From Candidatus Latescibacterota bacterium (GTDB lineage Bacteria; Latescibacterota; UBA2968), in NCBI GenBank assembly GCA_965222605.1, contig OZ244960.1, forward strand, positions 608,001 through 672,000: a stretch of DNA of 64,000 nucleotides, read 5' to 3'. Within the stretch, counting starts at the first letter, position 1, and each line of letters opens with the position of its first letter. Made by a program: the position numbers and the translations under genes. A model generated the notes under the pieces. It searched no databases, was not told the DNA's origin, and worked only from the letters and a program-made list of their open reading frames with translations. Shown piece after piece: positions 5,533 through 55,146 of the stretch.

Positions 5533-6471
5533 CTAAAAGGAGCCGCCGATCGTCAGTCTCAGCGGAGCATCAAAATGATTGCCAAAGTTGCTATATGCAA
5601 GATCCAGGGTAAACTTCCGACCCCCAAATTCCCGCTTGAGACCAACACCCAGGGAAAAATCCTCCAGGTCGTAATTCCACTTGTAACCGCCCCGCAAAGC
5701 AAGCGTATTGGCCAACCAGAGTTCTGCGCCCATATGCACCCGCGCCTCGAAATCTACGAAAAACACATTCTGGGCAGACACTGTCAAATAGGTCGGATCT
5801 CCCTTCTCACCCAGAACTTCCATCGCCCCGCCGATTGAGTAAACCACGGGCATAAACATTCGATCCAGAACCACTTTATTGTCCTTTCCAAAATTCTGCA
5901 AAGACATCGCGATTCGGGCCGACCTGAACCCCGTATAGAACATCGTACCCATATCGATGGAAAACGTCCTGTTTGTCCTGTCCGCCAATTCCTGTTGCAC
6001 AAACCGGATCTGTGCCCCGAAGGACATCTTGTTGGTCAGTTGAACCGCAAAGGACCCGCCCAGTGCCATATTGGAATTGTTAAAAATCTGACCTGTTCCG
6101 CCAGGTTGAAAGATCGTGGTTTCTTCAAATGCCGGAAGCTGAAGCGTCACGAGGCTCATTCCCCAGACCATATTACCCGTCTTATACGCAACCGCCCCGG
6201 AATAAAATTTCGAATCCACCAGCCAGCGGGTGTACGTAAACATATACTCCGCCCGCTTGATCCTGGTCAATCCCGCGGGATTCTGAAAAATCCCATTGAT
6301 ATCATCTGCAATCGCCGCATAAGCGTCGCCCATCGCCGCCGAACGCGTGGACTGGCCTACCTTGAGAAAAGTGAACCCGGCCGTGCCGACCTTCTTAAAT
6401 CCCGCATCGGCAGTTTCCGATAACAGAACCAGGACGGAGGCCATTACCCCTGTCAAAATCAAACGCACCAT
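5533..6471 (-). CDS. PorV/PorQ family outer-membrane barrel
   Basis: FTFLKVGQSTRSAAMGDAY..NPAGL; terminal F; paralog at 44664-45635. Confidence 0.85.
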   Translation of the reverse strand: MVRLILTGVMASVLVLLSETADAGFKKVGTAGFTFLKVGQSTRSAAMGDAYAAIADDINGIFQNPAGLTRIKRAEYMFTYTRWLVDSKFYSGAVAYKTGNMVWGMSLVTLQLPAFEETTIFQPGGTGQIFNNSNMALGGSFAVQLTNKMSFGAQIRFVQQELADRTNRTFSIDMGTMFYTGFRSARIAMSLQNFGKDNKVVLDRMFMPVVYSIGGAMEVLGEKGDPTYLTVSAQNVFFVDFEARVHMGAELWLANTLALRGGYKWNYDLEDFSLGVGLKREFGGRKFTLDLAYSNFGNHFDAPLRLTIGGSF

Positions 6472-6513
6472 GTTAAATTCCTCCTTGAAAAATAGAGCAG
6501 AACCAGGCTCCTC

Positions 6514-8889
6514 CTACCGGATCACCGCAAAAATCCCTTTGGCAATCTTTCCCTCCTGTCCCGGCACCAGCGACTCTACGATATAAAAATAATGTCCGCT
6601 GGAAACCTGCGTTGAAAAATTGTACGTCGCCTGGGTCCAGATCTGCTCACCGGCCGGCGCGTCGGTCGGCCTCCGGGGATGGTCGATCACACCCACCAGG
6701 TCTCCCGAAATCGAATAAATAGATATCTTGCACTTCCTTGGAATATTTACAAATCGGATCCGCTCACTACCGGCATATCGGTGAACATCGTCCGGAATAT
6801 AGGGGTTGGGGACCACCCGCACCGGCTCCAGCAGCGCATCCTTCTGATCAGTTGCAATCACAATGGGGCTGTCCGAAAGGTTCACCCGCTGCTCCGGTGC
6901 CGCCCCTCCGCTTTCCAGCCCCGTCTGAATCCGCTGCTGCTGTCCCGAATCCAGATCGCTCAGCGTGGAAATGCCGTTGGTCCATGTGCTATGGCCGGTA
7001 TCGTAGCTTCGCACCGAGTAGTAATACTCAAACCCGGGCACCGACTCGACATCGTGGTAGGTATAAATCCCCGGCTCGCTTGCTGATTCCCTTCCGGCGG
7101 AAACCCAGGTCGCGTTCGCATCGTATTCCGTGTTTGCGGGGTAGGGACCTCCCGCGGGAATATCCGCAATTTGGGTCCACGGACCGATATGTCTGAACTC
7201 AGCCCGATAGACCCGATATCCTTTCACATCCTGTGCGTCGGCACCCGTATAATCCGGATCTATGGCACTGTCCACTGCGTCGGACCATGAAATGGCCAGG
7301 TTGCCGTTCTCATCGCTGGCCACCTTGATGGCCACGTCCGGCGGTGGTTTCGGGAGCTTATACCCATTATCATAGGCGAATTGCGCCCGCTCCAGATGCT
7401 GCAACAGCGCCCGCTCCCCGTCGGCCAGGTGTGTCTTATCTCCCATTCTGGACCAGACGAATACGTCCATCGGGCCGCCACCTGGCCCGGCAAACTCCGC
7501 TCCACTGCCCGCCACAAACGCCACCACGATTTTGGCCTTATCCCCGGGCGCCAGATCGTATGGCCCATAGACCTGAGCGGTAGTCGCTTTTTGAAGCGTG
7601 GTCGGATTCTCCATAATGGCCGGTGTAGTTCCCTTCCCGATCAGTTCCATGTAAATCTCTTCGTCCGCGCTCTTCCCCGGAGCAGGCATGGTGAAGTCTG
7701 ATTGACTGGTGACTGGCCACCAGGTTGCGCTGACCGGCTGGTCTGCCACCTTGGGTGCCACGTAGATCTCGGCATCGTTCGTAAACGGAGGCATATAATC
7801 CAGCGGCGCAAATCCAATATACTGAAACGCCATCAACTGTCCTTCGATCAGAGCACCCCGGGATTGCACCCCCGAAGGGGCCTGATTCAGAAAAACGGGA
7901 CCGCCTGTATCATCGTCCGAGGTCGTGGGATCGTCTCCGTCGTACACATAGAAAATCTTCTTTCCCCTCAACCCGGGCAGACCGTCGAAATTGGACGCCT
8001 CGCTGTATTTGATCCAGTCGTCACCCATACCCGGCTGATGCCAGTACGCATGCCCGCCCACGCCGGCATTGAGCCAGGATCGTTGCGCTTCAGATACGTA
8101 CATATTATTGACAAAAGCAAAGTAGGCATTATTCAGCGTAACCGGCAATCCCCGGTCGGCGTCGGGCAGGCCGTCTCCGGTTGCATCCCCCGTGTTCTCA
8201 AACGCAATCTCCAGAATAAAGAAATCGTCGTAATCGGGGTAGCTCCACGCCTTCGCCCGCCGCGTCACCGTGATACCTCGTTCGGTCGTCCACTGAGAAA
8301 TCACGATCTCCTCGGCCTCCGTACTGACCGGTATATACCGCCCGTACTCGTAATTGTGGATCTCCGTCAGGTCCGCCACAATCGCAGGCGCGCCCGGCCA
8401 GTAATTGGCCTTTAACGCGCCGGTCATGTGCGAAGTGGCCTGGATACCCAGATCCCGCTCGGGACCTTTGGAAGGATCGTATATCATCTCGGCAATATCG
8501 TCCGTGTTCACCCACGGGTTAGACCCGGAGACATTGAACTCCATCCCCTCTCTGGTCATAATCCAGATCCCTTCTCCACGGCCGCAGTTGTAGAGAAACT
8601 CTGGCTCGGTGTAGGACTGGATGACCTGTCTGGGGTCCGACCCCCAGTACTCTTCAAAATCCCGGCTCGAAACCCGGAACCCCGGGTACATCAGATCCAC
8701 CTCGTCTCCGAAGTAGGTGTCCTGGCGATATCCCTGGGTTCCCGTCTTGCGAAATGTACTCCAGAGTTGGCCTCGCGTCAGGCTTCTCTGCACCTCCGGC
8801 TGCTGGGCCAAAACGGCATCCCATCCGCCCGGGCCGATCAAGACGACGGCTACGATGAGGCACCATAGGCTTGTCTTGATGTTGCTCAT
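6514..8889 (-). CDS. Large secreted protein with FN3-like region and T9SS/FlgD-Ig-like C-terminal domain
   Basis: Signal peptide; GYRVYR..YYYSVRSYD; VRVVPNPY..IYSISGDLV..SGHYFYIVES..FAVIR; paralog at 45646-48021. Confidence 0.7.
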   Translation of the reverse strand: MSNIKTSLWCLIVAVVLIGPGGWDAVLAQQPEVQRSLTRGQLWSTFRKTGTQGYRQDTYFGDEVDLMYPGFRVSSRDFEEYWGSDPRQVIQSYTEPEFLYNCGRGEGIWIMTREGMEFNVSGSNPWVNTDDIAEMIYDPSKGPERDLGIQATSHMTGALKANYWPGAPAIVADLTEIHNYEYGRYIPVSTEAEEIVISQWTTERGITVTRRAKAWSYPDYDDFFILEIAFENTGDATGDGLPDADRGLPVTLNNAYFAFVNNMYVSEAQRSWLNAGVGGHAYWHQPGMGDDWIKYSEASNFDGLPGLRGKKIFYVYDGDDPTTSDDDTGGPVFLNQAPSGVQSRGALIEGQLMAFQYIGFAPLDYMPPFTNDAEIYVAPKVADQPVSATWWPVTSQSDFTMPAPGKSADEEIYMELIGKGTTPAIMENPTTLQKATTAQVYGPYDLAPGDKAKIVVAFVAGSGAEFAGPGGGPMDVFVWSRMGDKTHLADGERALLQHLERAQFAYDNGYKLPKPPPDVAIKVASDENGNLAISWSDAVDSAIDPDYTGADAQDVKGYRVYRAEFRHIGPWTQIADIPAGGPYPANTEYDANATWVSAGRESASEPGIYTYHDVESVPGFEYYYSVRSYDTGHSTWTNGISTLSDLDSGQQQRIQTGLESGGAAPEQRVNLSDSPIVIATDQKDALLEPVRVVPNPYIPDDVHRYAGSERIRFVNIPRKCKISIYSISGDLVGVIDHPRRPTDAPAGEQIWTQATYNFSTQVSSGHYFYIVESLVPGQEGKIAKGIFAVIR

Positions 8890-8937
8890 AAAGCACCCTC
8901 CTTCAAATCATTTCGTGGCGATTACATCGCCTCGATA

Positions 8938-11900
8938 TTAGAACATAATCTGGAACCCTGCCTCGATCTGCCTGGGGAACCCGACCCACCGGGTATTTTC
9001 TTGGGGATCGCCGAACGTCCTATAATTTGCATTCGTCGGCGCCGGCAGAATCAGGCCATAGCGGTACCAGCTATTTCTGTTGCTCCTGGAAAGGGCCCTG
9101 ACGTCCCGCTGGTTAAACAGGTTCGTCATATTCAGGAGAAAACTCGCCCTGAGTTTGTCGTTAACCCGAAACTGCTTTTCAAAGGCCAGATCGGTCATCG
9201 TTTGCATCGGCGCAAATTTATTCTCGGCTGCCTGCCCGGGCAACTGCACGGACACCGACTCGCCAGACTTGATCCGGTAGATCAGGTTGACCCGGATATC
9301 GCCCAGAATCGTCCCATAGGTCGGCGGCGTCTGATACACAAAACTCACCTTGCCGAAACTCTGTCGGCTCGACCCCTCGCCGATTTCCCCTCCGGTTGTG
9401 ATCGTTCGCCCTGCGGGAATCCGGTTCGGCCGGTTGAAAGACCAGAGTCCGGGAACGCCATAGACCGGAATCAACGGTTCGTCGGTAAGCGGATCCCAGT
9501 CTAAAGCCGTTCCGGCCCGCACCGACTGGATCATTGCATCGGCGGCCGCACTCAACACCTGAACTTCTTCGGACGTCAGCGGAACCGGCACTTCGTTTCC
9601 GGTGTTGGTGTCCCGGGTGAAAGTCAGCCAGTAATCCCCGTTGGCAATAAAACTTCCGTCGGGAATATAAAAGGTGCGCTGCTCGGCAAGCTGCCCCCGG
9701 GTGTGCCACTGCTGGTTGAAGGAGATTTGAAAGGAAAGGTTGTCGCTGAACGCCTTCCGCAGGGACAGTTCGAACCCCTTCGTATCCTCAAACGCGTTGT
9801 TCAGCGCTGTCCGGCTCGTCCGGATAAATCCCCGCTTCTGCGGATCCCACCAGTACGGATTCCAGTTGCCTACATAATCCGTTCCACTCCTGTAATACGT
9901 AGTCACACTGGCCGTATAATCGCGGTAGAAATTCCAGTCCGTCCCCACTTCCCACTCTATGGTGGACTCAAAGCCCAGGTCGGTGCTGGAAGATGATCCC
10001 CGCTGCACAAGCTGGTTGTAAAGTTCGGTGTCGTCAATCCGGCCATTGCCGTTGAAGTCCGCCGAGGATTTTCCGCCCCAGAACGAGTTGACATAGACCC
10101 GGTAGAGCGAAGGCATCTGGGCGAACACCCCATAGGAGAAGTGAATCGCGGCATCGGCTGTAATCGGATGGGATACCCCGATCCGCGGACTCCACTTCTG
10201 GTGGGGTTTGGTCTTTACCCTGGGCGCGTAAAGCTGGTGCCGCCGGTACGAGTTGGCCATCGGCGCCACCATCCAGAGTCCGGTAGATACGGCCACCGGC
10301 TCGAAGTTGTGATCCCAGCGATCGTAGCGAAGGCCGACGTTGACGATCATTCCCTCAAACTCCATCTTGTCCTGAAGGTACACCGATGTCATAATCGGGT
10401 TGATCGGTTCCCCGATCTCATCCGGCTGGCTCACGGTCTCCAGACGGGGACTCCCGTTGGATCGGACCTGTAGCCAGGTCCACCAGAGGCTGTGGTAAGA
10501 CATCTCAACTCCGGTCTTGACCAGGTGGCCTTTCGTCACCTGACTGGTCAGGTCGAACTTGATGCCATACCGTTGCCGGTTGTCCGCCTCATAGGAAGTC
10601 TGCCGGTTGAAATCCACGGTAAACCAACCGTCTGCGTCCAGGCTTACTCTCTCTGCGGGAATGCCTTCCAGAGGGCTATTCTGATCCGTAGGCACATCGG
10701 TGGTATCCCTCGCATCCCGAAACCAGGACAGCCGGAACTCATAAAACGTCTTGGGACTCAACGTGTGGGTCAAAGAGAGATAGGATAGATCGTTCTTAAA
10801 AAGATTCTTACCTGCGCCGCTCTGACCCTCCGGCAAAAAGATGTTCCGCGTGTGATTTCGCTGTGTTCCCAGAAAAGTCTGGTGGCGCTCGTAGATACCC
10901 CCCAGTTTCACCTTCATATTGTCCCGCGCATCCCACGCCAGCTTGTAGGATCCCTGGAAATTTCCCGGAGAGGAAAACCAGTTGGTCTGTGAGACTGGAT
11001 TTTCAAAAAATCCTCGCATCTCGGCTCGTGGTGTTGGTGAGACCAGCCCCTGATATTTTCCGGAAACGAAGAAGGAAGCGATTCCCCCGATCGGTCCGGA
11101 TCCGGTCCCTTCGGCCCAGTGCCCATGCACACCCGTATAATCGTACCGCTCGTGGACCTTTCGCCCATTGGTATCCACTTCGTTTTCCCAGGTCGGATCG
11201 CCCCACTTCATTTTACCCTGATGCACGGCGCTATCAAAGAGATTGTTTCCCCAGTGCTTCTTCCTAGGAGCCGTCCACCTGTACTCCGCTTTTCCGTGAA
11301 AATCCTTGCCCCCCTCCTTTGTGATCACATTCACGACACCGCCGATGGCATTCCCATATTCGGCCGCCATACCGCCCGTAATCACCGTCACCTCCTGCAC
11401 CGCCCCGGCATTGATCCCGGTAAACGGCAGTTGGTGCCGCAATTCAGAGGCCTCCATCGGAACGCCGTCCAGCATAATCACCACATCGGACGTGCCCGTC
11501 CGGAGGTGCCCCCGGTTCCCGGAGTAACTGCCCCGCAGCGTCGGCAGGCCGTCCAGGCCAGCCCCCGCCTGAAGGGCGACAATATCCGAGATTTCCCGGA
11601 TGCTGGAAAGCTGCTCAATATCCTCCGCGGTCACCACATACTGGCTCGTGGTCTTGTCCGGCTCGATCGGTGGGCGCTTGGCCACCACCGTCAACTCAGC
11701 CAGTTCAACCGTGGTCTCCTTCAGCGTAAAGTTCAGCGTTCTTGTAAAATCTGCCGCAACCGAAACCCCGGTCTGGGTCTGATTGGCATACCCCACCAGC
11801 GAAGCTACCATAGTATAACGCCCGGGAGAAACCGACAGGATCAGATAGACACCTTCCGCATCTGTAGTGCCCCCCAGTCGTATTCCCTCGAGCACCACGT

Positions 11901-12048
11901 TAGCCCCGGGCAGGGGATTGCCCTGCTCATCACTGACCCTGCCCGTAAGTTTCCCCGTGGTGCCCCCGAACGCCCCCCCTGCTGCCAAAGCGACAACCAA
12001 CACACCAAGCAGGAGGCTGGCCTTCCTCACAAACAGGCGATTGTCCAT
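8938..12048 (-). CDS. TonB-dependent receptor with N-terminal carboxypeptidase-regulatory-like domain
   Basis: GKLTGRV..PLPGANV; plug ITGGMAAEYGNAIGGVVNVITKEG; YLQDKMEFEGMIVNVGLRYD; SPRIGVSHPIT; terminal F. Confidence 0.9.
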   Translation of the reverse strand: MDNRLFVRKASLLLGVLVVALAAGGAFGGTTGKLTGRVSDEQGNPLPGANVVLEGIRLGGTTDAEGVYLILSVSPGRYTMVASLVGYANQTQTGVSVAADFTRTLNFTLKETTVELAELTVVAKRPPIEPDKTTSQYVVTAEDIEQLSSIREISDIVALQAGAGLDGLPTLRGSYSGNRGHLRTGTSDVVIMLDGVPMEASELRHQLPFTGINAGAVQEVTVITGGMAAEYGNAIGGVVNVITKEGGKDFHGKAEYRWTAPRKKHWGNNLFDSAVHQGKMKWGDPTWENEVDTNGRKVHERYDYTGVHGHWAEGTGSGPIGGIASFFVSGKYQGLVSPTPRAEMRGFFENPVSQTNWFSSPGNFQGSYKLAWDARDNMKVKLGGIYERHQTFLGTQRNHTRNIFLPEGQSGAGKNLFKNDLSYLSLTHTLSPKTFYEFRLSWFRDARDTTDVPTDQNSPLEGIPAERVSLDADGWFTVDFNRQTSYEADNRQRYGIKFDLTSQVTKGHLVKTGVEMSYHSLWWTWLQVRSNGSPRLETVSQPDEIGEPINPIMTSVYLQDKMEFEGMIVNVGLRYDRWDHNFEPVAVSTGLWMVAPMANSYRRHQLYAPRVKTKPHQKWSPRIGVSHPITADAAIHFSYGVFAQMPSLYRVYVNSFWGGKSSADFNGNGRIDDTELYNQLVQRGSSSSTDLGFESTIEWEVGTDWNFYRDYTASVTTYYRSGTDYVGNWNPYWWDPQKRGFIRTSRTALNNAFEDTKGFELSLRKAFSDNLSFQISFNQQWHTRGQLAEQRTFYIPDGSFIANGDYWLTFTRDTNTGNEVPVPLTSEEVQVLSAAADAMIQSVRAGTALDWDPLTDEPLIPVYGVPGLWSFNRPNRIPAGRTITTGGEIGEGSSRQSFGKVSFVYQTPPTYGTILGDIRVNLIYRIKSGESVSVQLPGQAAENKFAPMQTMTDLAFEKQFRVNDKLRASFLLNMTNLFNQRDVRALSRSNRNSWYRYGLILPAPTNANYRTFGDPQENTRWVGFPRQIEAGFQIMF

Positions 12049-12075
12049 AACAATACCCCCTTGCTGAAATAGAGA

Positions 12076-12792
12076 TTATTCGCCGGAAATATAAAACTTC
12101 AGTCCTGCGCCCACATCGAGTAAATGGAAGAAACTCGTTTTCTGGATGCCCCACACGGCAAAGGGACGAAGTTCTCCCAACACAAAATTGTAGCGTACCC
12201 GCAGATCCAGCGCGGCTCGTTCACTAAAAAAGAACAGCGTTCCACCCCCCACATTGATGCTGAGTGCCGTCCGCGTATCTTCGACCGGTTCCAGCAGGAT
12301 CGCCGGGTCAGGCGGCGCTCCTGGACTCGACGGTTTCTGCTCCGGATAGATCAGCCCGCTAACCTTGTTGGCATAATCGTAAAATCCGGTCCCGAATGTG
12401 ATGTAGGGCGCCCCTCCCTGGCCAAACCCGTTTTGCTTCAAAGCCAACAGCCAGTTGACTGATATACTGTTGAAGGTCATGTCCGAGCTGGCCTGTGGAC
12501 TTCTGTGATCCTTCCCATCAGCAAACCTGAAGGTCCGCTCCTCCAAACTCCCGTCGGAAAATTTGGCGTAGTGGTACTCCACCTCCATCAGCTTGCGAGG
12601 GCTGAGCATGTGGTGGACTGACACGCCAAACTTGCCGGTATCTGTGTACATATCCCGGAACTTGAAGAAGGGCCTGTAGAGAGAGCCAAACACACCGCCC
12701 CCCCAGTTTCCAGACAGGTCGGCGGCCTTTGCAGCTGAAGCCGATAACCAGACCGACAGAAATATCAAGCCAATGACTTTGATATATCTCAT
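12076..12792 (-). CDS. Small outer-membrane beta-barrel protein
   Basis: Signal peptide, alternating beta strands, PYITFGTGFY, GAGLKFY; paralog at 51166-51858. Confidence 0.75.
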   Translation of the reverse strand: MRYIKVIGLIFLSVWLSASAAKAADLSGNWGGGVFGSLYRPFFKFRDMYTDTGKFGVSVHHMLSPRKLMEVEYHYAKFSDGSLEERTFRFADGKDHRSPQASSDMTFNSISVNWLLALKQNGFGQGGAPYITFGTGFYDYANKVSGLIYPEQKPSSPGAPPDPAILLEPVEDTRTALSINVGGGTLFFFSERAALDLRVRYNFVLGELRPFAVWGIQKTSFFHLLDVGAGLKFYISGE

Positions 12793-13004: not shown

Positions 13005-13034
13005 TTGACAAAAGTAGAGAATTAACAATATACT
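13005..13034 (+). promoter_or_regulatory. Sigma70-like promoter with overlapping inverted repeat
   Basis: TTGACA-N18-TATACT; 17-bp inverted repeat 12990-13006 / 13012-13028. Confidence 0.65.
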
Positions 13035-13040
13035 GTATGG

Positions 13041-13124
13041 CCTGAGAAGGTTTGTGAATCTCCTCATGACATCCAAGCCGTTAGCCTCTCCTCACCAAAG
13101 TTGATGCTAACGGCTTACTTTTTT
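13041..13124 (+). ncRNA. Candidate two-hairpin small RNA, copy 1
   Basis: Follows the promoter; hairpin TGAGAAGGTT..AATCTCCTCA; hairpin AAGCCGTTAGC..CTCACCAAAGTT..GCTAACGGCTT plus T6; similar unit at 52038-52132. Confidence 0.6.
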
Positions 13125-13526
13125 AGGCCCTTATTCTTTCAGAATCTCCAGCCAGTCGGCACGCAGATGGTTTCTGAGTTCGCGGTAGTATTCTGGGCCT
13201 CTGCCCTTCCCCCGCCTGCCTTCCACTTCTTGTTTTCATCGCCTCCAAATCGTCTTCCGTGGCGCGTTTAATCACCAGATCAACCATTGGATATTGTCAA
13301 ACAAAAGCATTCTTTCATGTATTTATTAGAATGATTTATGGTCAAATCAAATATATATTCGCTTTTTTCTCTGTCAAGTGTTTTCTGCCATTTGCCGGCG
13401 CAAAGAGAGCAATCCTGCAAAGCCTACCTTTTAACCTAGATCGGGCTCGACCAGGCAGAATCGCTCTGCGCCTTTCCACAGCACCCGCTCTCTGATCCTC
13501 TGCCCTCTGCTGCCTTCAGCCGCACG

Positions 13527-15287
13527 TCACCGGTTTCGCATCTGTTCAACCACTGGTGTCGCTGGCGCCTCGCCGCTATAAAGTGCCCGCCCCCGCTCGT
13601 AGGACACCTCCACCTCGCCATCCCTCACTTCCAGCCGGGGCACGTTGTAATCTCTCGCATCCCGATCCGTGCCGCGCATCACGGCCAAATGCGCGTCCGT
13701 CATGCCCTCCACCATATCGTCGCCCCAGCGGTTCCACGGATGCACTATCTCCCCACCGCTGCGGTGAAAACTCCGCGACGAGTATTTGATCAAAATACCC
13801 CGCCTCGGGATGGGATTCTTCCACGCCGTGGTGCCGTGCGTCGTCGAGCCATCGGCAAAAAACAGCACATCTCCCGCCTCCATCACCAACTGCTTCGCCA
13901 GACCCATGTGGTCGTCGCATGACCGCACGCCCGGCGGCGTGGGGTATTTTCCCTTATGAGAACCCGGCACACAGGCAAACCCGCCAAGACCGGGCGGCAC
14001 ATCCCGCAACTGCCATGTAACCGTCACCGCCTCCGAATAGCTTCGCCCATTCTGAAACTGATAGCCCATGGGTGGATACATCGGTTCCCCGGCATCGTGC
14101 AAAGCATGGCCAGATGTCCCCTGGACAGAGCAAAACGCCGCAGGCCCACTCATTCGCGCACCGCTCCCACCCATCCACGTCAACCTGTGCTGCACCAGCG
14201 GATGGGCCACCATCTTCCGAAACGGCTCGCAATACAGCTCGGGAAGATCCAGCAAACCGCCCAGCACCGGACGTCCCGTGCCCGCCAGACTCTTCGACCC
14301 TCGCGACAATTCCTCCTGCACCACAATCCGATCCTCAAACTTGTCAACCGCCTCATTCGCCTTCTCCAACCATTCCTCGTCCATCACCCCTTTGAGAATC
14401 AAATACCCGTTCAATTCCCAGAAATAAAACTCTTTTTCATCGATATTGGAATTGGGATCTCGACTGTAAATTGAAGGATGAAACACCTCTCGCGATTCAT
14501 CCAGTTTTACAGTCTCGCCATCCGTCACAACCACAGGCGGAGGCGTCGAGTACTCATAATCCGGTTTGTAAAGCGACGCGCGCTGTTCGGGACTGATATT
14601 CCCATGCCACTCGGGAGACGGATCCTCCGCAACCTTTGGCCCCGTGCCCGCAGACTGAATCGCCGCCCGCCCCACATACTCGTAACTCAACAGCCGTTGC
14701 GACCCCTTCTCTCGCCACGGCCGCACCCCCTGCAATACCGTCCCTGCCACCAGAAATAGATCTCCAGCCTTCAGCGCTGGTTGGAACGTCAGACCCATAT
14801 CGTCCTTACCCGTAGCCACATCTCCTGGTGTCTCCACATTGACCTTGTGTGTACACGGCACCATCACAAATCCGCCATCGCCCTCTTCCACATCCTCAAG
14901 CGCCCAGATCGCCCGCACTGCCTGGCAATACCGGCGGCCATTCTGAAAATAATACGCCCTGGCCGGATTTCTCGGCTCATTGCCCCCCACCAGAGGTGCT
15001 CCTACATCCCAGGTCTCATCGCACAACAACTCTGGCTCCCGGTCCAACCGAAATCCATAGCCTACGACCTGATTCAGATACCACACCAATTGTGGATGAA
15101 TCATCAAATCCCGAAACACATCCCGAAGTGGAGAAGCCCATCTCAGCATCCCCTCACTCTGTCCCCCTTCGTCCAGCGCTTCATTCAGCGCCTTCACTTC
15201 ACCTCGGTTCAGCACGCCCGGGATGTGCAAATAGCCTGCCACATCAAAGCAGTAATTCTCCTCGTTGCTCATCGCTTCCCGGTCCAT
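13527..15287 (-). CDS. Two-domain PhyH-like Fe(II)/2OG dioxygenase
   Basis: Two repeats starting YCFDVAGYL and YFWELNGYL; GGFACVPGSHK; AGDVLFF..HG. Confidence 0.85.
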   Translation of the reverse strand: MDREAMSNEENYCFDVAGYLHIPGVLNRGEVKALNEALDEGGQSEGMLRWASPLRDVFRDLMIHPQLVWYLNQVVGYGFRLDREPELLCDETWDVGAPLVGGNEPRNPARAYYFQNGRRYCQAVRAIWALEDVEEGDGGFVMVPCTHKVNVETPGDVATGKDDMGLTFQPALKAGDLFLVAGTVLQGVRPWREKGSQRLLSYEYVGRAAIQSAGTGPKVAEDPSPEWHGNISPEQRASLYKPDYEYSTPPPVVVTDGETVKLDESREVFHPSIYSRDPNSNIDEKEFYFWELNGYLILKGVMDEEWLEKANEAVDKFEDRIVVQEELSRGSKSLAGTGRPVLGGLLDLPELYCEPFRKMVAHPLVQHRLTWMGGSGARMSGPAAFCSVQGTSGHALHDAGEPMYPPMGYQFQNGRSYSEAVTVTWQLRDVPPGLGGFACVPGSHKGKYPTPPGVRSCDDHMGLAKQLVMEAGDVLFFADGSTTHGTTAWKNPIPRRGILIKYSSRSFHRSGGEIVHPWNRWGDDMVEGMTDAHLAVMRGTDRDARDYNVPRLEVRDGEVEVSYERGRALYSGEAPATPVVEQMRNR

Positions 15288-44663: not shown

Positions 44664-45635
44664 TTAGAACGCCCCACTCACAGCAACGCGCAGCGGTGCA
44701 TCGAAATACACACCGCCATCGCTATACGACACATCCACGCGGATATCGCGTTCGCCAAAAGCGTACTTCAGACCAACGCCCAGACTGTAATCCTCCACGT
44801 CGTAGTTGACCTTATACCCACCGCGCAATGCGAGCGTATTGGCAATCCATAGCTCACCGCCAAAATTCCACCGCTGACCGTAATCAGTTGCCATAATGGT
44901 CTCACCCGCAAGCGTCAAATACGTCGGGTCGCCCTGCTCGCCATAGATTTCACCTGCCAGCCCAAAATTGAAATTGATCGGCGGTGAAAACTGCTCGGTT
45001 TCCACAGTAATACCGGAACCCACATTGCGCGCTGCGGCGGCGATTCGCAAACTGCGATAGCCCGTATATGCCGAAATACCCAGGTCAAACTGAAATGTAC
45101 TCGTCGTTTTGAGCACCAGATCTTCCTGAACCCACCGCGCTTGCGCCCCCCAGGACACTTTATCGGTCATCTGACGCGCAAACATAAACCCAATGGCCGT
45201 ATCGCCGCCCTGAATCATGCGCCCGGTGCCTGTGGCCTGAAAAATCGTCGTTTCTTCCACTTCTTCGGGCGTGAAGCTCACAATTGAAACGCCAAACGTA
45301 TTGCCGCCCCATTTGTAGGCCAATGTCCCCGAATACAATCCCGAATTGACCAGCCAGCGCGTGTAGGACAGCGCGTACTCGCCGCCTGAAACAAATCCCA
45401 ATGCGCCGGGATTGTAAAAAAACGCATCAATACCGCCGTTCATCGCAACAAAGGCTTCGCCCATAGCCACGGCCCGGGGCGACGCGCCGATTTTGAGAAA
45501 TGCCAGCGACGACTGGCCCTTCACCGGCAAAATCGTACTGTATTCGCCAAAATCCGACTGTGCAAAGGCCGGCCCCATCATCAGCCCGACACCTAGCAGA
45601 AGTGCCAGGGCCGTTGTCAACATTCGTTTGTTCAT
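44664..45635 (-). CDS. PorV/PorQ family outer-membrane barrel
   Basis: FLKIGASPRAVAMGEAF..NPGAL; ELWIANTLALRGGYK shared with the paralog. Confidence 0.85.
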   Translation of the reverse strand: MNKRMLTTALALLLGVGLMMGPAFAQSDFGEYSTILPVKGQSSLAFLKIGASPRAVAMGEAFVAMNGGIDAFFYNPGALGFVSGGEYALSYTRWLVNSGLYSGTLAYKWGGNTFGVSIVSFTPEEVEETTIFQATGTGRMIQGGDTAIGFMFARQMTDKVSWGAQARWVQEDLVLKTTSTFQFDLGISAYTGYRSLRIAAAARNVGSGITVETEQFSPPINFNFGLAGEIYGEQGDPTYLTLAGETIMATDYGQRWNFGGELWIANTLALRGGYKVNYDVEDYSLGVGLKYAFGERDIRVDVSYSDGGVYFDAPLRVAVSGAF

Positions 45636-45645
45636 GTCACGCTCC

Positions 45646-48021
45646 TTATCTCAGAATGTAAAACGTCCCCATCACCTTTTGCCCCATACTTTCGGGTGTC
45701 AGTGATTCTACGACGTAAAAGTAGATGCCGCTGGCCACATCCGGCGCAGTCTCGTTGCGTTCAATTTGGAACCACGATGCCTCACCTGCGTTGGGGTCGT
45801 CGTGCAGGATTTCACCCACGATTTCGCCGGCCACATTGTAGATCAGCACGCGGCTTTTGGGGGGCAATCCCAGGAAGCGGATCTTTTTTGAACTCTGGTA
45901 ATTATAACCCGATTCCGACAAACTGAATGGATTGGGCACCACGCGCACGCGCTTTTCCGGCCAGGACGGCGCCAGACCCGGCTGAAACGGGCTGAGGTCC
46001 AGGTTCACGCGCTGCTCGGGGGCAGAATATCCACCTTCGAGTCCAGCCTGTAAATGACTCTGCACTTCTGCGGGCAAATCGCCAATGCTCGACATGCCAT
46101 TGCTCCACGAATCGCGCGGTTTGGCAAAAGCCCGCACATTGTAAAAGTATCGGAACCCGGCAACCGCCGTATTATCGCGCCACACGTATTGGCCGCCCGA
46201 ATAGTCCCAGGTAGATCCGGAGGTACCTGCAGTGACTGTACCGATGTGCTCCCATGGCCCAAATTCCTGATAGGCAGATCGGAACACGCGATATCCCACC
46301 ACATCGGCATCGCCAAAATCGGGATGCACCGACGATTCGGCGGCATCGTTCCATGTCAACGTAATCTCTGCATCCTGATTGACCCCCGGCGCGAACTTCA
46401 CATCGGGTGGATAATCGGGCAGATCGTACATATTGTCGTACGCGAATTGTGCGGCATTCAAATGCGCCACAAGAGCGGCTTCTCCCTTGCTCAACCGCGC
46501 CAATCGTTCTTCTTCGGGCAGTGGAATGTCTTTCAAACAAAATGTCTGTATATCCACTGCATACGCCGACTGGCCTTCGCGGGATATCGCCTGCGCGCCT
46601 GTCCCGGCGACATAAGCCACCACGATCTTGGCCTTCTCGCCCACAGCCAGATTATACGGCCCAAAAGTGAGTGCATTGGCCATAGCGTTGACAGTGGATG
46701 GGTTATCATCGGTTGTTCCTGAAAACGTTTCGTAAATACCCTGCTCAGAATCGCTCTGCAAATTCGGCAAATCCGTGCTCAAACCCCAGAAATCGCGCGT
46801 TTCCCACCATTTTGACGTCCTGGGTTGATCGCCTTGCGGATTGACGTATTTGCCCTGGTCGCTGGCATTGAATACATGCGACGGCCCGCTATCGCGATAG
46901 GCCAATGGAGCAACGCTCACATATTGCGGCGATCTCATTTGCCCGTCAAACACGCCACCCGGCAGTCTTTTCGCATTGCCGTGTACGCTTTCGATATAAA
47001 CGGGTTGCCCGGTGTCTTCTTCCGAGCGCTGGATACTGTCGCCATCCCACTGATAGTTCATCTTCAAATCGACATATTCAGCAGGTCCGTCGTAATTCGG
47101 CGCACCCGTATAGCGATACTCATCGTCTTGCGGCTGATACGATCCGGGCATACCAGATCCAAGACCGTTCCAATTGCCCTCGCCCGACATGCTCACCGTA
47201 AAGCCCTGAACAAATGAGAAATACGCCCCCGTTAGATTATGTCCAGCACCGCCATTCACATCGGCAACACCATCGCCATCAGAGTCACCCGTGTTCTCAA
47301 ATTCCACTTCTAAAATGAAGAAATCGTCAAAGCCCTGATAACTCCATGCCATAGCCTTGCGCGTAATCGTAACACCGTGTTTGGTCGTCCACCTGCTAAA
47401 AACGATATCTTCCGCGCGGTCGTCCTTATCGGCGTCCATGTACTGGCCCCACCGATGATTGAGGACTTCATAGGGCACGCCCGTTCTCGGCGCATCGGTT
47501 TGCAATGCAGCACCGGGATACCAGTTGGGCATAATTGCTCCCGTCCCCAATCCATGGGGTGGCACTTCGACCTGGTATCCCCAGTTGGCTTCGGGACTAT
47601 TGGCAATATCGTAATACATCGGTGAGATATCCGCCGAAGGCGTCCACGGTCCCGAATACGACACCCCGTATTCGCCACCGACATTGGTCAACACCCATAT
47701 ACCTTCTCCTCCCGACAAATTTTGCGCCTCATTTTTTTGCTCGGCCCAGCTAAAACCGTTCTTTTTGCCGAAATACTCAATGTAGTCTGCACCGGCCATG
47801 TTGAGCATAAGGCCATTGCCCATGCCCGGATACGTCAAGCGGGGCGCGCCGCGAGAACTTCGGTCGTCCCAGACGCCGCCCTGAGTCCCCTCATTGCGGA
47901 ACCCGGTCCAGAGTTGCCCGCGCGTGAGTTGTCGCATATTCTGCGTGTCCAGGGAATAGACCTCAAACGCCCACCCCACAACCACTATCATCAGGACAGC
48001 AGCGAGAAATTTCCTGTTCAT
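45646..48021 (-). CDS. Large secreted protein with FN3-like and T9SS/FlgD-Ig-like C-terminal domain
   Basis: LTRGQLW, WSYQGFDDFFILE, VRVVPNPF..SGIYFYVVES..FYILR; paralog of 6514-8889. Confidence 0.7.
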   Translation of the reverse strand: MNRKFLAAVLMIVVVGWAFEVYSLDTQNMRQLTRGQLWTGFRNEGTQGGVWDDRSSRGAPRLTYPGMGNGLMLNMAGADYIEYFGKKNGFSWAEQKNEAQNLSGGEGIWVLTNVGGEYGVSYSGPWTPSADISPMYYDIANSPEANWGYQVEVPPHGLGTGAIMPNWYPGAALQTDAPRTGVPYEVLNHRWGQYMDADKDDRAEDIVFSRWTTKHGVTITRKAMAWSYQGFDDFFILEVEFENTGDSDGDGVADVNGGAGHNLTGAYFSFVQGFTVSMSGEGNWNGLGSGMPGSYQPQDDEYRYTGAPNYDGPAEYVDLKMNYQWDGDSIQRSEEDTGQPVYIESVHGNAKRLPGGVFDGQMRSPQYVSVAPLAYRDSGPSHVFNASDQGKYVNPQGDQPRTSKWWETRDFWGLSTDLPNLQSDSEQGIYETFSGTTDDNPSTVNAMANALTFGPYNLAVGEKAKIVVAYVAGTGAQAISREGQSAYAVDIQTFCLKDIPLPEEERLARLSKGEAALVAHLNAAQFAYDNMYDLPDYPPDVKFAPGVNQDAEITLTWNDAAESSVHPDFGDADVVGYRVFRSAYQEFGPWEHIGTVTAGTSGSTWDYSGGQYVWRDNTAVAGFRYFYNVRAFAKPRDSWSNGMSSIGDLPAEVQSHLQAGLEGGYSAPEQRVNLDLSPFQPGLAPSWPEKRVRVVPNPFSLSESGYNYQSSKKIRFLGLPPKSRVLIYNVAGEIVGEILHDDPNAGEASWFQIERNETAPDVASGIYFYVVESLTPESMGQKVMGTFYILR

Positions 48022-48039
48022 ATCACTATCCTCCAATTT

Positions 48040-51000
48040 TCAAAACTGAATTTCCAGACCGATTTCCACTTTGCGCGGATTGTACCTGTAGCGCGTGGAT
48101 TCTCTTGGGTCGCCATAAAGCAAATACCCGGTATCATCTGGCGGGGGTAGCCGCAGCCCGTACTGCACATAAGTAAAATCCGAATTTCGGATCTCGGAGC
48201 TCTTTTCATTGAACAAATTGCTCACTTCCAAAAATAGCGTGGGACGCAATTTGCCAATAGCTCGAAAATCTTTGGCCGCGTACAGATCCGTCTTCATCGT
48301 CGATGCTCCTGTGCGAAATTCGCGCGGGCCAATCGGGGGGACATACTCAAACGGCTGGCCGCTGAAAATGCGGTAGATCATGCTCACGCGCAGACCCCCA
48401 AATGGATTGATCGCGCCCATTTTGGGACCATAAGCCATCGGCGTGGCATAATACAACTGAAGCGACAACTGATTCCTGCGCTGCCCGCTGATAGGCTCTG
48501 CCGAAAAGACATTTCCGTTTGCGGCTGTCCAGATACCGTTGTCATTGGTTTTGATGGGTGGCTGCCAGACCCCTGCACCAGGGCCTTGTGACCCGGCCTG
48601 CCCGATCCACGCCACGATATTTGCCTCGGCTCTGGCACTGATGTCGGCCACTTGCTCAGACGTGAGCGGCACGGGTCTTTCCGAACCGTCGGATTGCACT
48701 TCCCAATCAGTCCAGTAGTGCCCAGCCGCAATAAAATCGGCATTGGGAAGCACATACCAGTTTGACGAATGTTTTCCGTAGTGAACGCCGCCCGGATCGC
48801 GCACCCATTCGGCATTGTAGGACAAATGGAACTGGAAATTGTTGCTAAACGTCTTTTTCAGCGACAGTTCGATCCCGCGCGCTGTTTGCCATCGGGTATT
48901 GCGTATTGCGTTGACCTGTGCGGACTGGCCTTTGAGCGGATCTACCCAATAGGAAATATTGTTTCTGGCGTACAACCCCTCGTCGCGCCGATAGTGTGCC
49001 GTAATACTGGCCGTATAATCAGCTACAAAGTTCCAGTCCACCCCCATTTCCATACTCGTCGTGCGCTGGGGGTTCATGCCTTCGGACGGCTGCCGCGCCG
49101 TGGTATGCACTTCCATAGCATTCCACTTTTCGGTCTCGTCAATTACGCCATTGCCGTTGAGGTCATTGTCTGGCGCCTCGCTTGAAAACTGTCTGCGATG
49201 GGTTTCGAGGAGCACGGGAAAGACGTTCGCTCGACCAATGAAATAGTGCGCTGCCAACTGGTCTGTAATCGGATGCGACAGGCCCAAGCGCGGACTCAGC
49301 GCCGTCATCGTTGGCGTCGAACTATCGAGATGGTCCATTTCATACCGCGCCCGCGTAAACGTGCTGTACATCGGCGATTTGCCCAGCGCCTCTCCCATTG
49401 AGCCGTTGCGCCCAAAATTGTAATAATCCCAGCGTAAGCCCAGATTGGCAATCAGGCCGCCGTACTCGATCTTGTCCTGCACATACAGGTTCAGCGTCCA
49501 GGGTTTCACATTTTCGCCCAGGTTAAACCCATCGGCCACAAATTCGAGAAAGCGGCTCTTGGTATTGTCAAAATCTTCTCGCGTGCGGTGATAGGCCCGC
49601 TGCGTGAGCACCAACCCCGTCTGAATCAAGTGCGACCGATTGACCTGACTCACGAAATCGTATTTGATGCCGTATTTCGTATCTTCCTCTTCGGTATATT
49701 CGCGCACCAGCGTGGGCAAATTGAAAAAACCCGCCTTATCTTTGCGCACTGCTTCGGTGGCAGCCGGCACATCGAACGCATCGCGATCGTATTTGTTGTA
49801 GAAAAATTTCAGATCGTAATACGTGTTTTTGCCCAATGTATGTGTCAACGTCAACACCTCGAGCTGCCGCGACAATGTGTAAGTACCCGAAGCTGAAAAA
49901 TCCTCGAGGAAGAAAATATTTTGCGTATTGTTGCGCGTTGATCCCTGAAACTGATCCGACCTTTGATACATGCCCAGTGCCTTAATCTTGATATTTGCGC
50001 TGGGGCGATACGTCAACGTGGCCTGCATGCGCGGCGGATTATCCGATATCTGCTCAACTGCGGGAAACCTGGCCGGGTCGCGGGAATAACTCACGCTGGC
50101 AAAATACGAAAAATCGCGTGTGAGCGGCCCGCCCAGCGTGCCTTCTAAGCGGTGCCCACGCTTGTCCGTATATTCGACGCGTTCGTGCGCCATACGCTCG
50201 ACATCGTCAGACGTTCCCAGCGTGCGATCAGGTCCTGGATCCATATATGTTTCGTTCACCCAATCGGGATTGTTCCACTGCACATTGTCTTCAAATCCAG
50301 GGCTTTCATGCACATCTCTGCCCCAGTGTTTTTTGCCCGCTGGTGTGAACTTATACTCCACCCGACCAGAGAAATTGCCCCGGCCTTCTTTTGTCACCAG
50401 GCTCACAATGCCCGCACCCGCATTGCCAAATTCCGCATTCATACCACCGGTTAGCACACTCAGTTCCTGAATGGCCGTAGTGTTCACGCCTGTGAGCAGA
50501 CTCCGATCGACCTCAATCCCATCGATATAATAGCCCACCTGCGTCCCCGCTTGCACCTGCGTTGTGCTTCCGCGAATGCGATTGCTACCATCCAGTGCCA
50601 TACCCGGTTGCAATGCGATCAATTGCGATGTCGATCTCACCTGCGGCACGGCCTGAATATCTGCCGAAGAAACCACGTATTTGCTCGTGGTTTTGTCTGG
50701 CTCAACAGGTGGCCGCTCCGCAATAACAATCAGTTCGGCCAATTCGAGACTGGATTCTTTCAGTGCAAAATTCACTGTGGATGTATAATCCACAATCACC
50801 TGCACTTCTTCTTTCTTTTCTGTGCCATAGCCCACTATCGTCGCCGTCAGGGTGTACATTCCGGGATCCACGGCCAGAATTAAATAGCGACCCTCTGTAT
50901 CGGTGGTGGCTCCTTTGCGGGTACCTTCAAGCACCACATTCGCGCCCGGCAAAGACTCACCCGTGGCGGCATCTGTGATGACACCCGTGATCTTTCCCGC

Positions 51001-51066
51001 TGTTGCTGCCATTGCCGACGTATCCATCAGCAAGAACAAAATAAATCCCAATATTAACCGCTTCAT
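48040..51066 (-). CDS. TonB-dependent receptor
   Basis: GKITGVI..LPGANV; TGGMNAEFGNA; YVQDKIEY..NLGLRWD; SPRLGLSHPIT; terminal F. Confidence 0.9.
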   Translation of the reverse strand: MKRLILGFILFLLMDTSAMAATAGKITGVITDAATGESLPGANVVLEGTRKGATTDTEGRYLILAVDPGMYTLTATIVGYGTEKKEEVQVIVDYTSTVNFALKESSLELAELIVIAERPPVEPDKTTSKYVVSSADIQAVPQVRSTSQLIALQPGMALDGSNRIRGSTTQVQAGTQVGYYIDGIEVDRSLLTGVNTTAIQELSVLTGGMNAEFGNAGAGIVSLVTKEGRGNFSGRVEYKFTPAGKKHWGRDVHESPGFEDNVQWNNPDWVNETYMDPGPDRTLGTSDDVERMAHERVEYTDKRGHRLEGTLGGPLTRDFSYFASVSYSRDPARFPAVEQISDNPPRMQATLTYRPSANIKIKALGMYQRSDQFQGSTRNNTQNIFFLEDFSASGTYTLSRQLEVLTLTHTLGKNTYYDLKFFYNKYDRDAFDVPAATEAVRKDKAGFFNLPTLVREYTEEEDTKYGIKYDFVSQVNRSHLIQTGLVLTQRAYHRTREDFDNTKSRFLEFVADGFNLGENVKPWTLNLYVQDKIEYGGLIANLGLRWDYYNFGRNGSMGEALGKSPMYSTFTRARYEMDHLDSSTPTMTALSPRLGLSHPITDQLAAHYFIGRANVFPVLLETHRRQFSSEAPDNDLNGNGVIDETEKWNAMEVHTTARQPSEGMNPQRTTSMEMGVDWNFVADYTASITAHYRRDEGLYARNNISYWVDPLKGQSAQVNAIRNTRWQTARGIELSLKKTFSNNFQFHLSYNAEWVRDPGGVHYGKHSSNWYVLPNADFIAAGHYWTDWEVQSDGSERPVPLTSEQVADISARAEANIVAWIGQAGSQGPGAGVWQPPIKTNDNGIWTAANGNVFSAEPISGQRRNQLSLQLYYATPMAYGPKMGAINPFGGLRVSMIYRIFSGQPFEYVPPIGPREFRTGASTMKTDLYAAKDFRAIGKLRPTLFLEVSNLFNEKSSEIRNSDFTYVQYGLRLPPPDDTGYLLYGDPRESTRYRYNPRKVEIGLEIQF

Positions 51067-51079
51067 AGACCTCCTCCTA

Positions 51080-51165
51080 TGTGAAGTGTGAAGTGTGATG
51101 AAGCACCCGCCTTCTGGGTGGTGTGGGGTGGCCTTCTCACTTCTTACTTCTCACTTCTTACTTCA
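51080..51165. repeat. Heptamer-periodic inverted repeat (long hairpin)
   Basis: (TGTGAAG)n ... (CTTCTCA/CTTCTTA)n. Confidence 0.7.
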
Positions 51166-51858
51166 TTACCAGTACAGTTTGAACGCCGTCCTGAAATCGA
51201 ACATGGCAAGTGGAAATACGCCGGGCAGATCCCACGACTCCATCGGACGCAAATCACCCAAAATCATGTGATAACGCCCGCGGATATCCAGCCCGAATCG
51301 CCCCTGCACCACCGTCATGCCCAACCCCAAATTTGCCCCCAGAGCTGTATGTTCATCCTCTCGGTCATCCAGCATCAGATCCTGATTCAAAGGCTCCTCT
51401 TTTTGTCCCGGATAAATCAGACCAGTGATCCTATCCTGATAATCGTAGAACCCCGCACCCACAGCGATATAGGGCAAAAGCTGCAAATCGCCACCGGACT
51501 TTCGGGGATTGAGATACGCCAGAGCATTGATCAAAAAGCTATTGAGGTTAAACCGAGAGTTGGCATCTGGACTCAAATATTTTTGTTTGTCAATGGGCCA
51601 CGTAAACGCCAGAGCTTCGATTTTTCCGTCATCCATTGTCATATGGTGGTATTCAAACTCCATCGTGGCGCGCGAACTGACCTGATAATCGAGCACCGCA
51701 CCATATACCTGAGAAGCCGAATACCGGTCGTGAAACCCCAGCACGGGCACGCTGCGGTTAAAAAACACGCCAGCACCGTACCGGGTCTCCTGGGCAGAGA
51801 CCGGCACCGCGATAAACAATGCCAGCAGCCACACCTTCAACATCAAATATCTATTCAT
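51166..51858 (-). CDS. Small outer-membrane beta-barrel protein
   Basis: Signal peptide; MEFEYH, GFYDY..GLIYPGQK shared with 12076-12792; terminal W. Confidence 0.75.
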   Translation of the reverse strand: MNRYLMLKVWLLALFIAVPVSAQETRYGAGVFFNRSVPVLGFHDRYSASQVYGAVLDYQVSSRATMEFEYHHMTMDDGKIEALAFTWPIDKQKYLSPDANSRFNLNSFLINALAYLNPRKSGGDLQLLPYIAVGAGFYDYQDRITGLIYPGQKEEPLNQDLMLDDREDEHTALGANLGLGMTVVQGRFGLDIRGRYHMILGDLRPMESWDLPGVFPLAMFDFRTAFKLYW

Positions 51859-52002
51859 AGATATGTCTCCTTTTAACAGTCAACGGTTGTATAACATTCT
51901 ACATCTCATGTCATATCTCCTCCTTTCCCAATAGCACAACGTATTGTCGCCATTGAAGCAATGTACAAGTTCAATCGTCAGTTTTTTCCTCCTTTCTCAA
52001 TC

Positions 52003-52031
52003 TTGACAAAACCATTTAAAATTGTTAAAGT
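52003..52031 (+). promoter_or_regulatory. Sigma70-like promoter
   Basis: TTGACA-N17-TAAAGT with TGn. Confidence 0.55.
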
Positions 52032-52037
52032 CTCTGC

Positions 52038-52132
52038 CTTTTGTCGTATGATGGGTTTCTAAATCCTTCATACGGCTACCTGGTCGTTAGCCCGATCTCG
52101 CCAAAGTTCGAAGGCTAACGGGCCTTTTTTTT
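52038..52132 (+). ncRNA. Candidate two-hairpin small RNA, copy 2
   Basis: Hairpin GTCGTATGATGGGTTT..AAATCCTTCATACGGC; hairpin CGTTAGCC..CTCGCCAAAGTT..GGCTAACG plus T8. Confidence 0.6.
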
Positions 52133-52940: not shown

Positions 52941-52990
52941 AACAGATCTCCTTTATCGTGTAAATGTGCGGAAGAACCCTTGAAACGCTG

Positions 52991-54106: not shown

Positions 54107-54109
54107 GGG

Positions 54110-54928: not shown

Positions 54929-54960
54929 TGCGGATCCTTCCTTTTGCACGTTGACAAGAA

Positions 54961-55140
54961 TCACATCCCCCATACCACAACCGCCCCCCTTCGGTTGCCT
55001 CGCGGCGATACACCTTGTCGTCCCACGACGCGTCCTCACTGCGGTCAAAGAGTACCAAGTGCCCTTCTGCCACCGTGCAGCGGTCCAGGTAGGCGCGTGT
55101 CTGCGCCAGTCCTTCGCGCAGCGTCCGCTTAGCCTTTGCA
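54961..55140 (-). pseudogene. C-terminal remnant of an ATP-binding / PD-(D/E)XK-like protein
   Basis: EGLAQTRAYLDRCTVAEGHLVLFDRSEDASWDDKVYRRE, then frameshifted VVVWGM*. Confidence 0.6.
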
Positions 55141-55146
55141 GATGCC

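Follow-up and report, generated by a model that had tools for sequence, protein, structure and literature searches.

Six paralogous copies of a predicted small RNA gene adjoin outer membrane uptake operons in a Latescibacterota bacterium

The window analysed here is a 64,000-nt stretch of contig OZ244960.1 (positions 608,001 to 672,000) from a Candidatus Latescibacterota bacterium. It contains two copies of a short element, each located upstream of, and divergent from, an operon encoding an outer membrane protein (OMP), a TonB-dependent receptor (TBDR), a protein of 791 or 796 aa (79x-aa) and a PorV/PorQ-family protein. The best overall explanation is that both belong to a set of six paralogous genes for small RNAs (sRNAs) of 85–105 nt that regulate the adjacent uptake operons in a DonS-like manner, a reading to which a probability of roughly 0.55 is assigned. 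Its components differ in strength. From sequence evidence a real, independently transcribed and structured sRNA family is very probable. That the sRNA regulates the neighbouring operon is an even bet, and antisense pairing with an overlapping leader is put forward tentatively as the route. The analysis itself shows the gene anatomy, RNA-level covariation, a strand preference, operon linkage and confinement of the family to Latescibacterota.

The features of the two units are itemized in Table 1. Each comprises a promoter, two hairpins and a T-run, all at the places described in the original prediction. When the two intergenic regions are aligned with each other, only TTGACAAAA and hairpin 2 match, in agreement with the earlier description of the remainder as unalignable. 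In copy 1, 213 nt separate the −35 box from the start codon of the OMP gene (12792), and the TTGACA of copy 2 is unchanged across 13 aligned orthologous loci. The + strand RNAs fold more stably than shuffled sequences, with z = −4.7 for copy 1 and −5.2 for copy 2 (0/200 shuffles equally stable). No ORF is conserved; the only ATG-started frames, of 12 codons (copy 1) and 4 codons (copy 2), are mutually unrelated, and a small-peptide reading was dropped for this reason. The RNA was proposed to be unnamed, and Rfam 15 at gathering thresholds indeed gives 0 matches across the whole 64-kb window. The best sub-threshold matches were the L13-Bacteroidia leader (14.7 bits, threshold 38, E 2.4) and Spy779816 (24.3 bits, threshold 67, E 0.052). 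Judged by its predicted features, each unit has the general marks of a stand-alone sRNA gene, i.e. its own promoter, conserved structure, a Rho-independent terminator and no conserved ORF. A + strand gene for an RNA of ~85–95 nt, as originally proposed, is thus supported as a prediction.

Table 1. Positions of the features discussed. Coordinates refer to the window, except those marked G000, which refer to the 6.34-Mb genome from which it comes.
Feature	Position	Strand	Details and basis
Copy 1 promoter, TTGACA-N18-TATACT	13005..13034 (−35 13005-13010; −10 13029-13034)	+	11/12 vs consensus
Copy 1 predicted sRNA, ~84 nt	13041..13124	+	5′ end predicted only; folding, model scores, G019 ortholog
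Copy 1 hairpin 1	13043-13066	+	4 bp, A/C mismatch, 5 bp, UGUG loop
Copy 1 hairpin 2	13075-13116	+	11-bp stem, 20-nt loop, core CTCACCAAAGTT at 13091-13102
Copy 1 T-run (U-run in RNA)	13119-13124	+	
Candidate operon-strand promoter, TTGACA-N16-TATATT	13350..13377	-	11/12 consensus match; also in G019 ortholog
Copy 2 promoter, TTGACA-N17-TAAAGT	52003..52031 (−35 52003-52008; −10 52026-52031)	+	TG-extended; 10/12 vs consensus
Copy 2 predicted sRNA, ~95 nt	52038..52132	+	5′ end predicted only; folding, ortholog covariation
Copy 2 hairpin 1	52043-52076	+	
Copy 2 hairpin 2	52082-52124	+	loop core CTCGCCAAAGTT at 52097-52108
Copy 2 T-run (U-run in RNA)	52125-52132	+	
Operon 1, divergent from copy 1	5533..12792	-	Pfam/NCBIfam-type profiles, ESM Atlas
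Operon 1 OMP beta-barrel	12076-12792	-	
Operon 1 SusC-like TBDR	8938-12048	-	
Operon 1 791-aa protein	6514-8889	-	without known family
Operon 1 PorV/PorQ-family	5533-6471	-	
Operon 2, divergent from copy 2	44664..51858	-	profile matches
Operon 2 OMP	51166-51858	-	
Operon 2 TBDR	48040-51066	-	
Operon 2 796-aa protein	45646-48036	-	
Operon 2 PorV/PorQ-family	44664-45635	-	
R1 matches in own genome	G000 660034, 2276952, 621030, 5229696, 2170905(-), 6044333		
Third copy (c3)	G000 2276952-2277054		
Fourth copy (c4)	G000 5229696-5229794		
Fifth copy (c5)	G000 2170905-2170991		

The pattern lies beyond chance because it recurs and covaries in related genomes. In a MAFFT alignment of 12 orthologs 95.7% of the cells are paired, a level reached by 0/500 shuffles, and five pairs have changed on both sides; slid controls of the same alignment are 19–50% paired. 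RNAalifold, applied to 14 sequences, independently predicts the same two hairpins, and suggests extra pairs inside the loop that are invariant among orthologs. A second alignment, of 47 matches (45 distinct rows after two identical rows were dropped), was fitted to a covariance model and so leans towards the structure; in it 93.4% of the cells are paired (0/500 shuffles as high) and 22/25 pairs have changed on both sides, including 8/11 in the terminator stem. G-U cells outnumber A-C cells (101 vs 35), and at the base of hairpin 2 U-G pairs are frequent (19/45 and 10/45 rows), so that pairing is better on the + strand. Just upstream, 37/45 family loci have a promoter with 9/12 or more matches, compared with 5/225 control windows, and a T-run follows the stem at 44/45 loci, where the T-run columns belong to the model.

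Two covariance models were used, R1 built from 12 copy 2 orthologs and R2 from the 47 model matches. R1 finds six places in the window's own genome at E <= 4e-5, with the next matches at E >= 0.08, and R2 returns the same six, after which E jumps from 1e-8 to 0.5. Both copies noticed originally are real, and they belong to a family of six in which the other four had been missed. Copy 1 scores 46 bits with R1 and 65.9 bits with R2 and has an ortholog in the related genome G019, with which it forms the c1 class; copy 2 and its orthologs form the c2 class. The six copies share the hairpin 2 stem GTTAGC / GCTAAC (ATTAGC / GCTAAT in one), a loop core like CTCGCCAAAG and the T-run; in the two window copies the conserved loop of the terminator hairpin reads CUCRCCAAAGUU. 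The 5′ hairpins of the six show no sequence relationship to one another, and paralogs average 0.68 identity over the 3′ module vs 0.30 over the 5′ part. The family has a predicted length of 85–105 nt from promoter to U-run, both ends being predicted. That paralogs with differing 5′ halves share one 3′ stem-loop argues for a partner common to all of them, over recognition by locus-specific antisense pairing only.

The family is confined to Latescibacterota. A strict hairpin 2 motif occurs in 13/41 related genomes, all in the genus of the window, with 0 matches in controls. R1 matches 27/53 genomes of the order, including 17/20 of the genus (16–17 of 19–20 across models). R2 matches 30/151 sampled genomes of the phylum, distributed among four families as 21/29 (f1), 4/19 (f2), 3/64 (f3) and 1/2 (f4), with 0/36 in other families. 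A strict pattern scan of one genome per species, covering 185,579 species, gave 43 loci. Nineteen of the 43 were confirmed by R2 at >= 38 bits, and all of these are Latescibacterota or Latescibacteria records. The other 24, from other taxa, had no R2 score or partial matches of <= 29.7 bits and were set aside, tens of chance matches being expected.

The scan of relatives with a covariance model bears out the co-location that was anticipated, since the family is tied to operons of the OMP-TBDR-PorV type. By tblastn the window's own genome contains 22 paralogous OMP-TBDR-79x-PorV/Q operons, and 6/6 of its sRNA copies are upstream of and divergent from one of these. Five lie ~150–265 nt from the OMP start, and the sixth is ~1.3 kb from the OMP gene with a GFO/IDH/MocA oxidoreductase gene intervening. 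Among the relatives a divergent OMP gene is present in the fetched flank at 32/47 matches (27 at 129–264 nt and 5 at 1.0–1.35 kb) and a divergent TBDR gene at six more, giving at least 38/47 that are operon-linked; the neighbour survey covered 43/47 matches. Three of the remaining matches are orthologs of the 1.3-kb class for which the fetched flank is too short to reach the OMP gene. In the genomes G001 and G002 the far flank of the copy 2 ortholog differs, while the sRNA still adjoins the operon. Gene orientation beyond the sRNA terminator is mixed among loci. The other 16 operons have no family member upstream by R1, R2 or pattern search; three looser regular-expression matches upstream of other operons were unconfirmed by the models. 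The neighbouring OMP proteins of the six copies are 31–58% identical, and in a quick tree of the 22 TBDRs the operons that carry an sRNA are dispersed (5 changes; 207/500 shuffles as low). The 3′ identity of the paralogs despite diverged OMPs and scattered operons therefore points to a 3′ module held by selection, via either old duplications or repeated recruitment.

These features suggest the following mechanism. Each sRNA gene would be transcribed from its sigma-70-type promoter away from the first gene of the OMP/TBDR/79x-aa/PorV-PorQ operon, giving an RNA with a 5′ hairpin, in which the sequence varies and the pairing is kept, a short linker and a 3′ stem-loop. The latter would be formed by the stem CCGUUAGCY / RGCUAACGG with a ~20-nt loop of core CUCGCCAAAG, and together with the U-run would act as the intrinsic terminator. 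The sRNA would act on the adjacent operon after transcription start, most probably by pairing with a long leader or a read-through transcript that comes from a promoter or gene on the far side of the sRNA gene and runs across it. Pairing would then lead to cleavage, attenuation or transcriptional interference, as for the DonS-type RNAs of Bacteroides polysaccharide utilization loci (PULs). The common 3′ stem-loop may be the recognition module, either forming a kissing loop with a complementary leader hairpin or providing a protein site, and could let one sRNA act on the five other operon leaders. An extension of this idea, rather speculative and on balance unlikely, is that every sRNA-bearing leader carries the exact complement of the 3′ stem-loop. 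Antisense cross-talk in a network of six sRNAs and six leaders would then rank the paralogous operons or make them mutually exclusive, in a host in which the Hfq, ProQ and RRM-type families were not found, via protein-free loop kissing or a new RNA-binding protein specific for this stem-loop.

Promoter-like sites on the operon strand are found within 300 nt beyond the sRNA terminator at 13/45 loci, and between the sRNA promoter and the first gene at 3/45. In the c1 class TTGACA-N16-TATATT is present beyond the sRNA at 2/2 loci. Since the site in the window (13377->13350) is beyond the sRNA gene, a transcript from there would overlap copy 1 fully, antisense, and continue into operon 1. At the c3 loci an operon-strand TTGACA-N17-TATCTT island is conserved in 7/7, located 36–107 nt beyond the sRNA terminator; this island, ACTAATAACTTGACA...TATCTT, lies past the upstream gene's stop codon, and the sequence that comes after it is variable. 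The antisense hairpin would not terminate the operon transcript, because there is no U-run after it. The YUNR word noted originally in the operon-strand loop is present. It carries little information, as about one is expected by chance per 20-nt loop, and the sRNA-strand loop likewise contains one (CUCG or CUCA).

The leaders have some further features. Beyond copy 1, window positions 13125-13527 comprise ~400 nt without a long ORF, within which lies the candidate minus-strand promoter described above; a 36-codon minus-strand frame ends at 13130, and another frame there looks like the C-terminal end of a gene that has been lost. Additional Shine-Dalgarno-like boxes (GAGAAAGGAGG) that lack a usable start codon occur in the operon leaders, in the window at 51985-51999 and 51912-51935 on the minus strand. 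One of these is directly beside the −35 box of copy 2 and is kept in all copy 2 orthologs, and after the second comes a mini-ORF, which in this genome reads ATG ACA TGA. Similar boxes are found in the c3 and c5 classes (L019 and L022). In most copy 2 orthologs the stretch that separates the sRNA promoter from the OMP gene contains a perfect palindrome, AACTTCGTAGAAGTT, which is partly deleted here; it could be an operator.

Several observations weigh against regulation of the adjacent operon by an antisense sRNA. In the c2 class (copy 2 and 12 other orthologs) an operon-strand promoter beyond the sRNA was found in 0/13, and the same-strand gene upstream, for a xylose-isomerase-like TIM barrel protein, stops 40 nt short of the sRNA terminator, so that overlap in this class would need read-through. 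The antisense or attenuation control suggested in the original prediction thus retains a candidate promoter for full overlap at copy 1 and its G019 ortholog, and lacks one for the copy 2 class. Conservation of the loop across paralogs is not required for purely cis-antisense recognition. The gene that follows the c5 copy lies on the sRNA's own strand, and two distant and weaker matches, from another family, are beside an MMPL transporter or a Laminin_G_3 protein. The related genomes are non-independent, such that the counts overstate the number of independent events, and the E-values of R1 and R2 are rough. Two sponge metatranscriptome runs from one study contain near-identical contigs that cover the OMP gene of operon 2 and upstream sequence to 51920 and 51963. 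None of the matching RNA-library contigs covers 51964-52132, although sRNAs of ~90 nt are usually lost from such libraries, and since these contigs cannot show strand or transcript ends the uncovered part proves nothing. Two runs from a second study gave contigs of 8.5 and 1.0 kb that span the sRNA region and flanks; they derive from a 90–95% relative, and cannot demonstrate a transcript. By the RNA runs found, the host lineage lives in sponges.

The retention of the loop and stem sequence across paralogs, which does not extend to the 5′ halves, would fit a family that acts in trans or binds a protein. The 3′ loop would then be a seed for a distant mRNA or a protein site, and adjacency to the operons would reflect co-regulated transcription. 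This would also accommodate the missing overlap-generating promoter in c2, the most widespread class, and has a precedent in FopS, described in PMC11697453 as a multicopy family with one common seed acting on SusC-like mRNAs. The calculated pairing argues otherwise. Duplex energies of the loop with the start regions of 22 OMP, 22 TBDR, 11 79x-aa and 22 PorV-family genes show no excess, falling within ~1 standard deviation of 300 random windows when trivial self-antisense matches are set aside, and the loop was rejected as a trans seed on this basis. Pairing of the 5′ half likewise reveals no preference for the own operon, the cognate start region ranking 18, 17, 12, 4, 5 and 16 of 22. The Hfq, ProQ and RRM_1 (PF00076) families were not found in the 98.7%-complete genome, in searches that were positive in control genomes (for RRM_1 including B. 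thetaiotaomicron) and did not extend to CsrA and KH proteins, so no known chaperone is at hand. Moreover, tight divergent linkage kept while the operon proteins fell to 31–58% identity exceeds what co-regulation needs. A trans-acting or protein-binding family is therefore considered unlikely.

The conserved element might instead belong to the operon strand, as a leader hairpin with the loop AACUUUGGCGAG that is bound by a protein or is riboswitch-like, the + strand promoter and U-run being secondary. The minus-strand folds are stable too (z = −4.7 and −3.6), the 8-bp core of hairpin 2 is Watson–Crick on both strands, and two paralog classes have candidate upstream operon promoters. Yet the excess of G-U over A-C cells points to the + strand, and the frequent U-G pairs at the stem base would become A-C mismatches when read on the operon strand. 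A leader element would have no use for a U-run or for a TTGACA promoter conserved at a fixed distance, and no Rfam cis-regulatory family matches. This explanation is accordingly judged improbable. Lower still is the likelihood of no RNA function at all, with the element being a terminator with a chance promoter, a DNA palindrome operator, or a repeat carried by operon duplication. Expression is a prediction, the arms of hairpin 2 are an inverted repeat in the DNA, and the copies could have spread with duplication of the operon. Against this, the compensatory changes and G-U pairs indicate selection at the RNA level, and the pairing of the 5′ hairpin is kept despite entirely replaced sequence. 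The 3′ module is 68% identical, whereas flanks and 5′ halves have about random identity. There are just six copies, all in the same position with respect to the operon, unlike a mobile repeat, and no + strand gene lies upstream for a terminator to serve. The preferred reading remains that of sRNA genes regulating the adjacent uptake operons.

The operon proteins are only partly assigned to families. The PorV/PorQ proteins match NF033709 at 159 and 145 bits (cut-off 90). The TBDRs have CarboxypepD_reg and Plug domains, with SusC/RagA-like similarity at the N-terminus only and below cut-off. No SusD family match was obtained among the four operon genes scanned, and the 79x-aa protein matches no Pfam or NCBIfam family; the latter may fill the role that SusD has elsewhere. 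In the ESM Atlas the clusters nearest to it consist of unnamed proteins, most often from Gemmatimonadota, Ignavibacteriota and Fidelibacterota.

Among the 22 operons, two (G000 552736-560106 and 4049311-4056684) are near identical, with TBDR branch lengths of 0.01, which suggests that they arose by a recent segmental duplication. Upstream of the operon at G000 3795715 there is a copy 2-like promoter stretch, TTGTCAAC...TTGTTAAAGT (~3795300-3795400), followed after ~165 nt by a strong terminator hairpin. This promoter and hairpin may constitute a different, putative divergent sRNA gene. Just beyond the c4-type sRNA, on the operon strand, lies a gene for a GntR/FCD regulator (L021 1668-2375, G000 ~5229863-5230570; Pfam FCD 74.8 bits and GntR 63.7 bits), and an apparent frameshifted remnant of a GntR helix-turn-helix, recognized by reading the sequence only, is found beyond c5 (L022 1301-1476). 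The operon strand upstream of copy 2 (window 52170-55156) encodes the xylose-isomerase-like TIM barrel, a class I/II aminotransferase and a WelO5-like halogenase-family protein.

The Latescibacterota are not known to have a cultured member, and a full-text literature search found no paper on small RNAs of this phylum. The support for the predicted family suffices to propose it as a new RNA family. If the preferred reading is true, RNA control of glycan or nutrient uptake loci extends past gut Bacteroides to a distant lineage of the Fibrobacteres–Chlorobi–Bacteroidetes (FCB) group. The family would then offer a clean case for sRNA action without Hfq, ProQ or RRM proteins, and for the question of why paralogs keep one stem-loop. 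Six specific loci are now available to metatranscriptome studies.

Three known systems can be compared with the element. Like the plasmid-type countertranscripts CopA/CopT and RNAI/RNAII, which act through kissing loops, the c1 and c3 classes have a predicted convergent promoter pair around a short structured antisense RNA, with loops that are complementary by construction and contain a YUNR word. They differ in being associated with chromosomal uptake operons and in having a loop that is common to paralogs rather than diversified; the overlap here is only predicted, and the YUNR word is expected by chance.

FopS comprises 14 paralogous sRNAs of 65–70 nt in Bacteroides thetaiotaomicron, with a conserved 5′ seed (R1′) that pairs with susC start regions and binding by the RRM protein RbpB; 4/14 are classed as antisense (PMC11697453). 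Both are multicopy sRNA families with one conserved module and a connection to SusC-like transporter operons. The conserved part here is the 3′ loop, with 5′ halves 30% identical, so there is no common 5′ seed; no start-region complementarity was found, and no RRM_1 protein was found in the genome. Every copy in this genome is operon-linked, whereas FopS is without such linkage.

Bacteroides and the Latescibacterota hosts both belong to the FCB group of phyla. PUL-associated antisense sRNAs of the DonS type, reportedly described by Cao et al. 2016, are the closest known system. DonS-type RNAs of Bacteroides PULs are 78–128 nt in length, divergent to susC homologs and repress them (PMC7366714), and are also described as PUL-associated cis-antisense sRNAs (PMC13750123). 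The element resembles these in size class (predicted 85–105 nt here), in the presence of several paralogs per genome and in its divergent location just upstream of a SusC-like TonB-dependent transporter operon (6/6 in this genome and at least 38/47 matches overall). It differs in its phylum and sigma-70-type TTGACA promoter, in an operon that starts with a small OMP gene and lacks a SusD match in the four genes scanned, and in a 3′ stem-loop sequence common to the paralogs. Repression is described for DonS, where here both repression and antisense overlap would be predictions, and the comparison is by description, not by sequence. On these grounds the element is classed as a new family of PUL-associated sRNAs, distinct from FopS and, as compared by description, from DonS.
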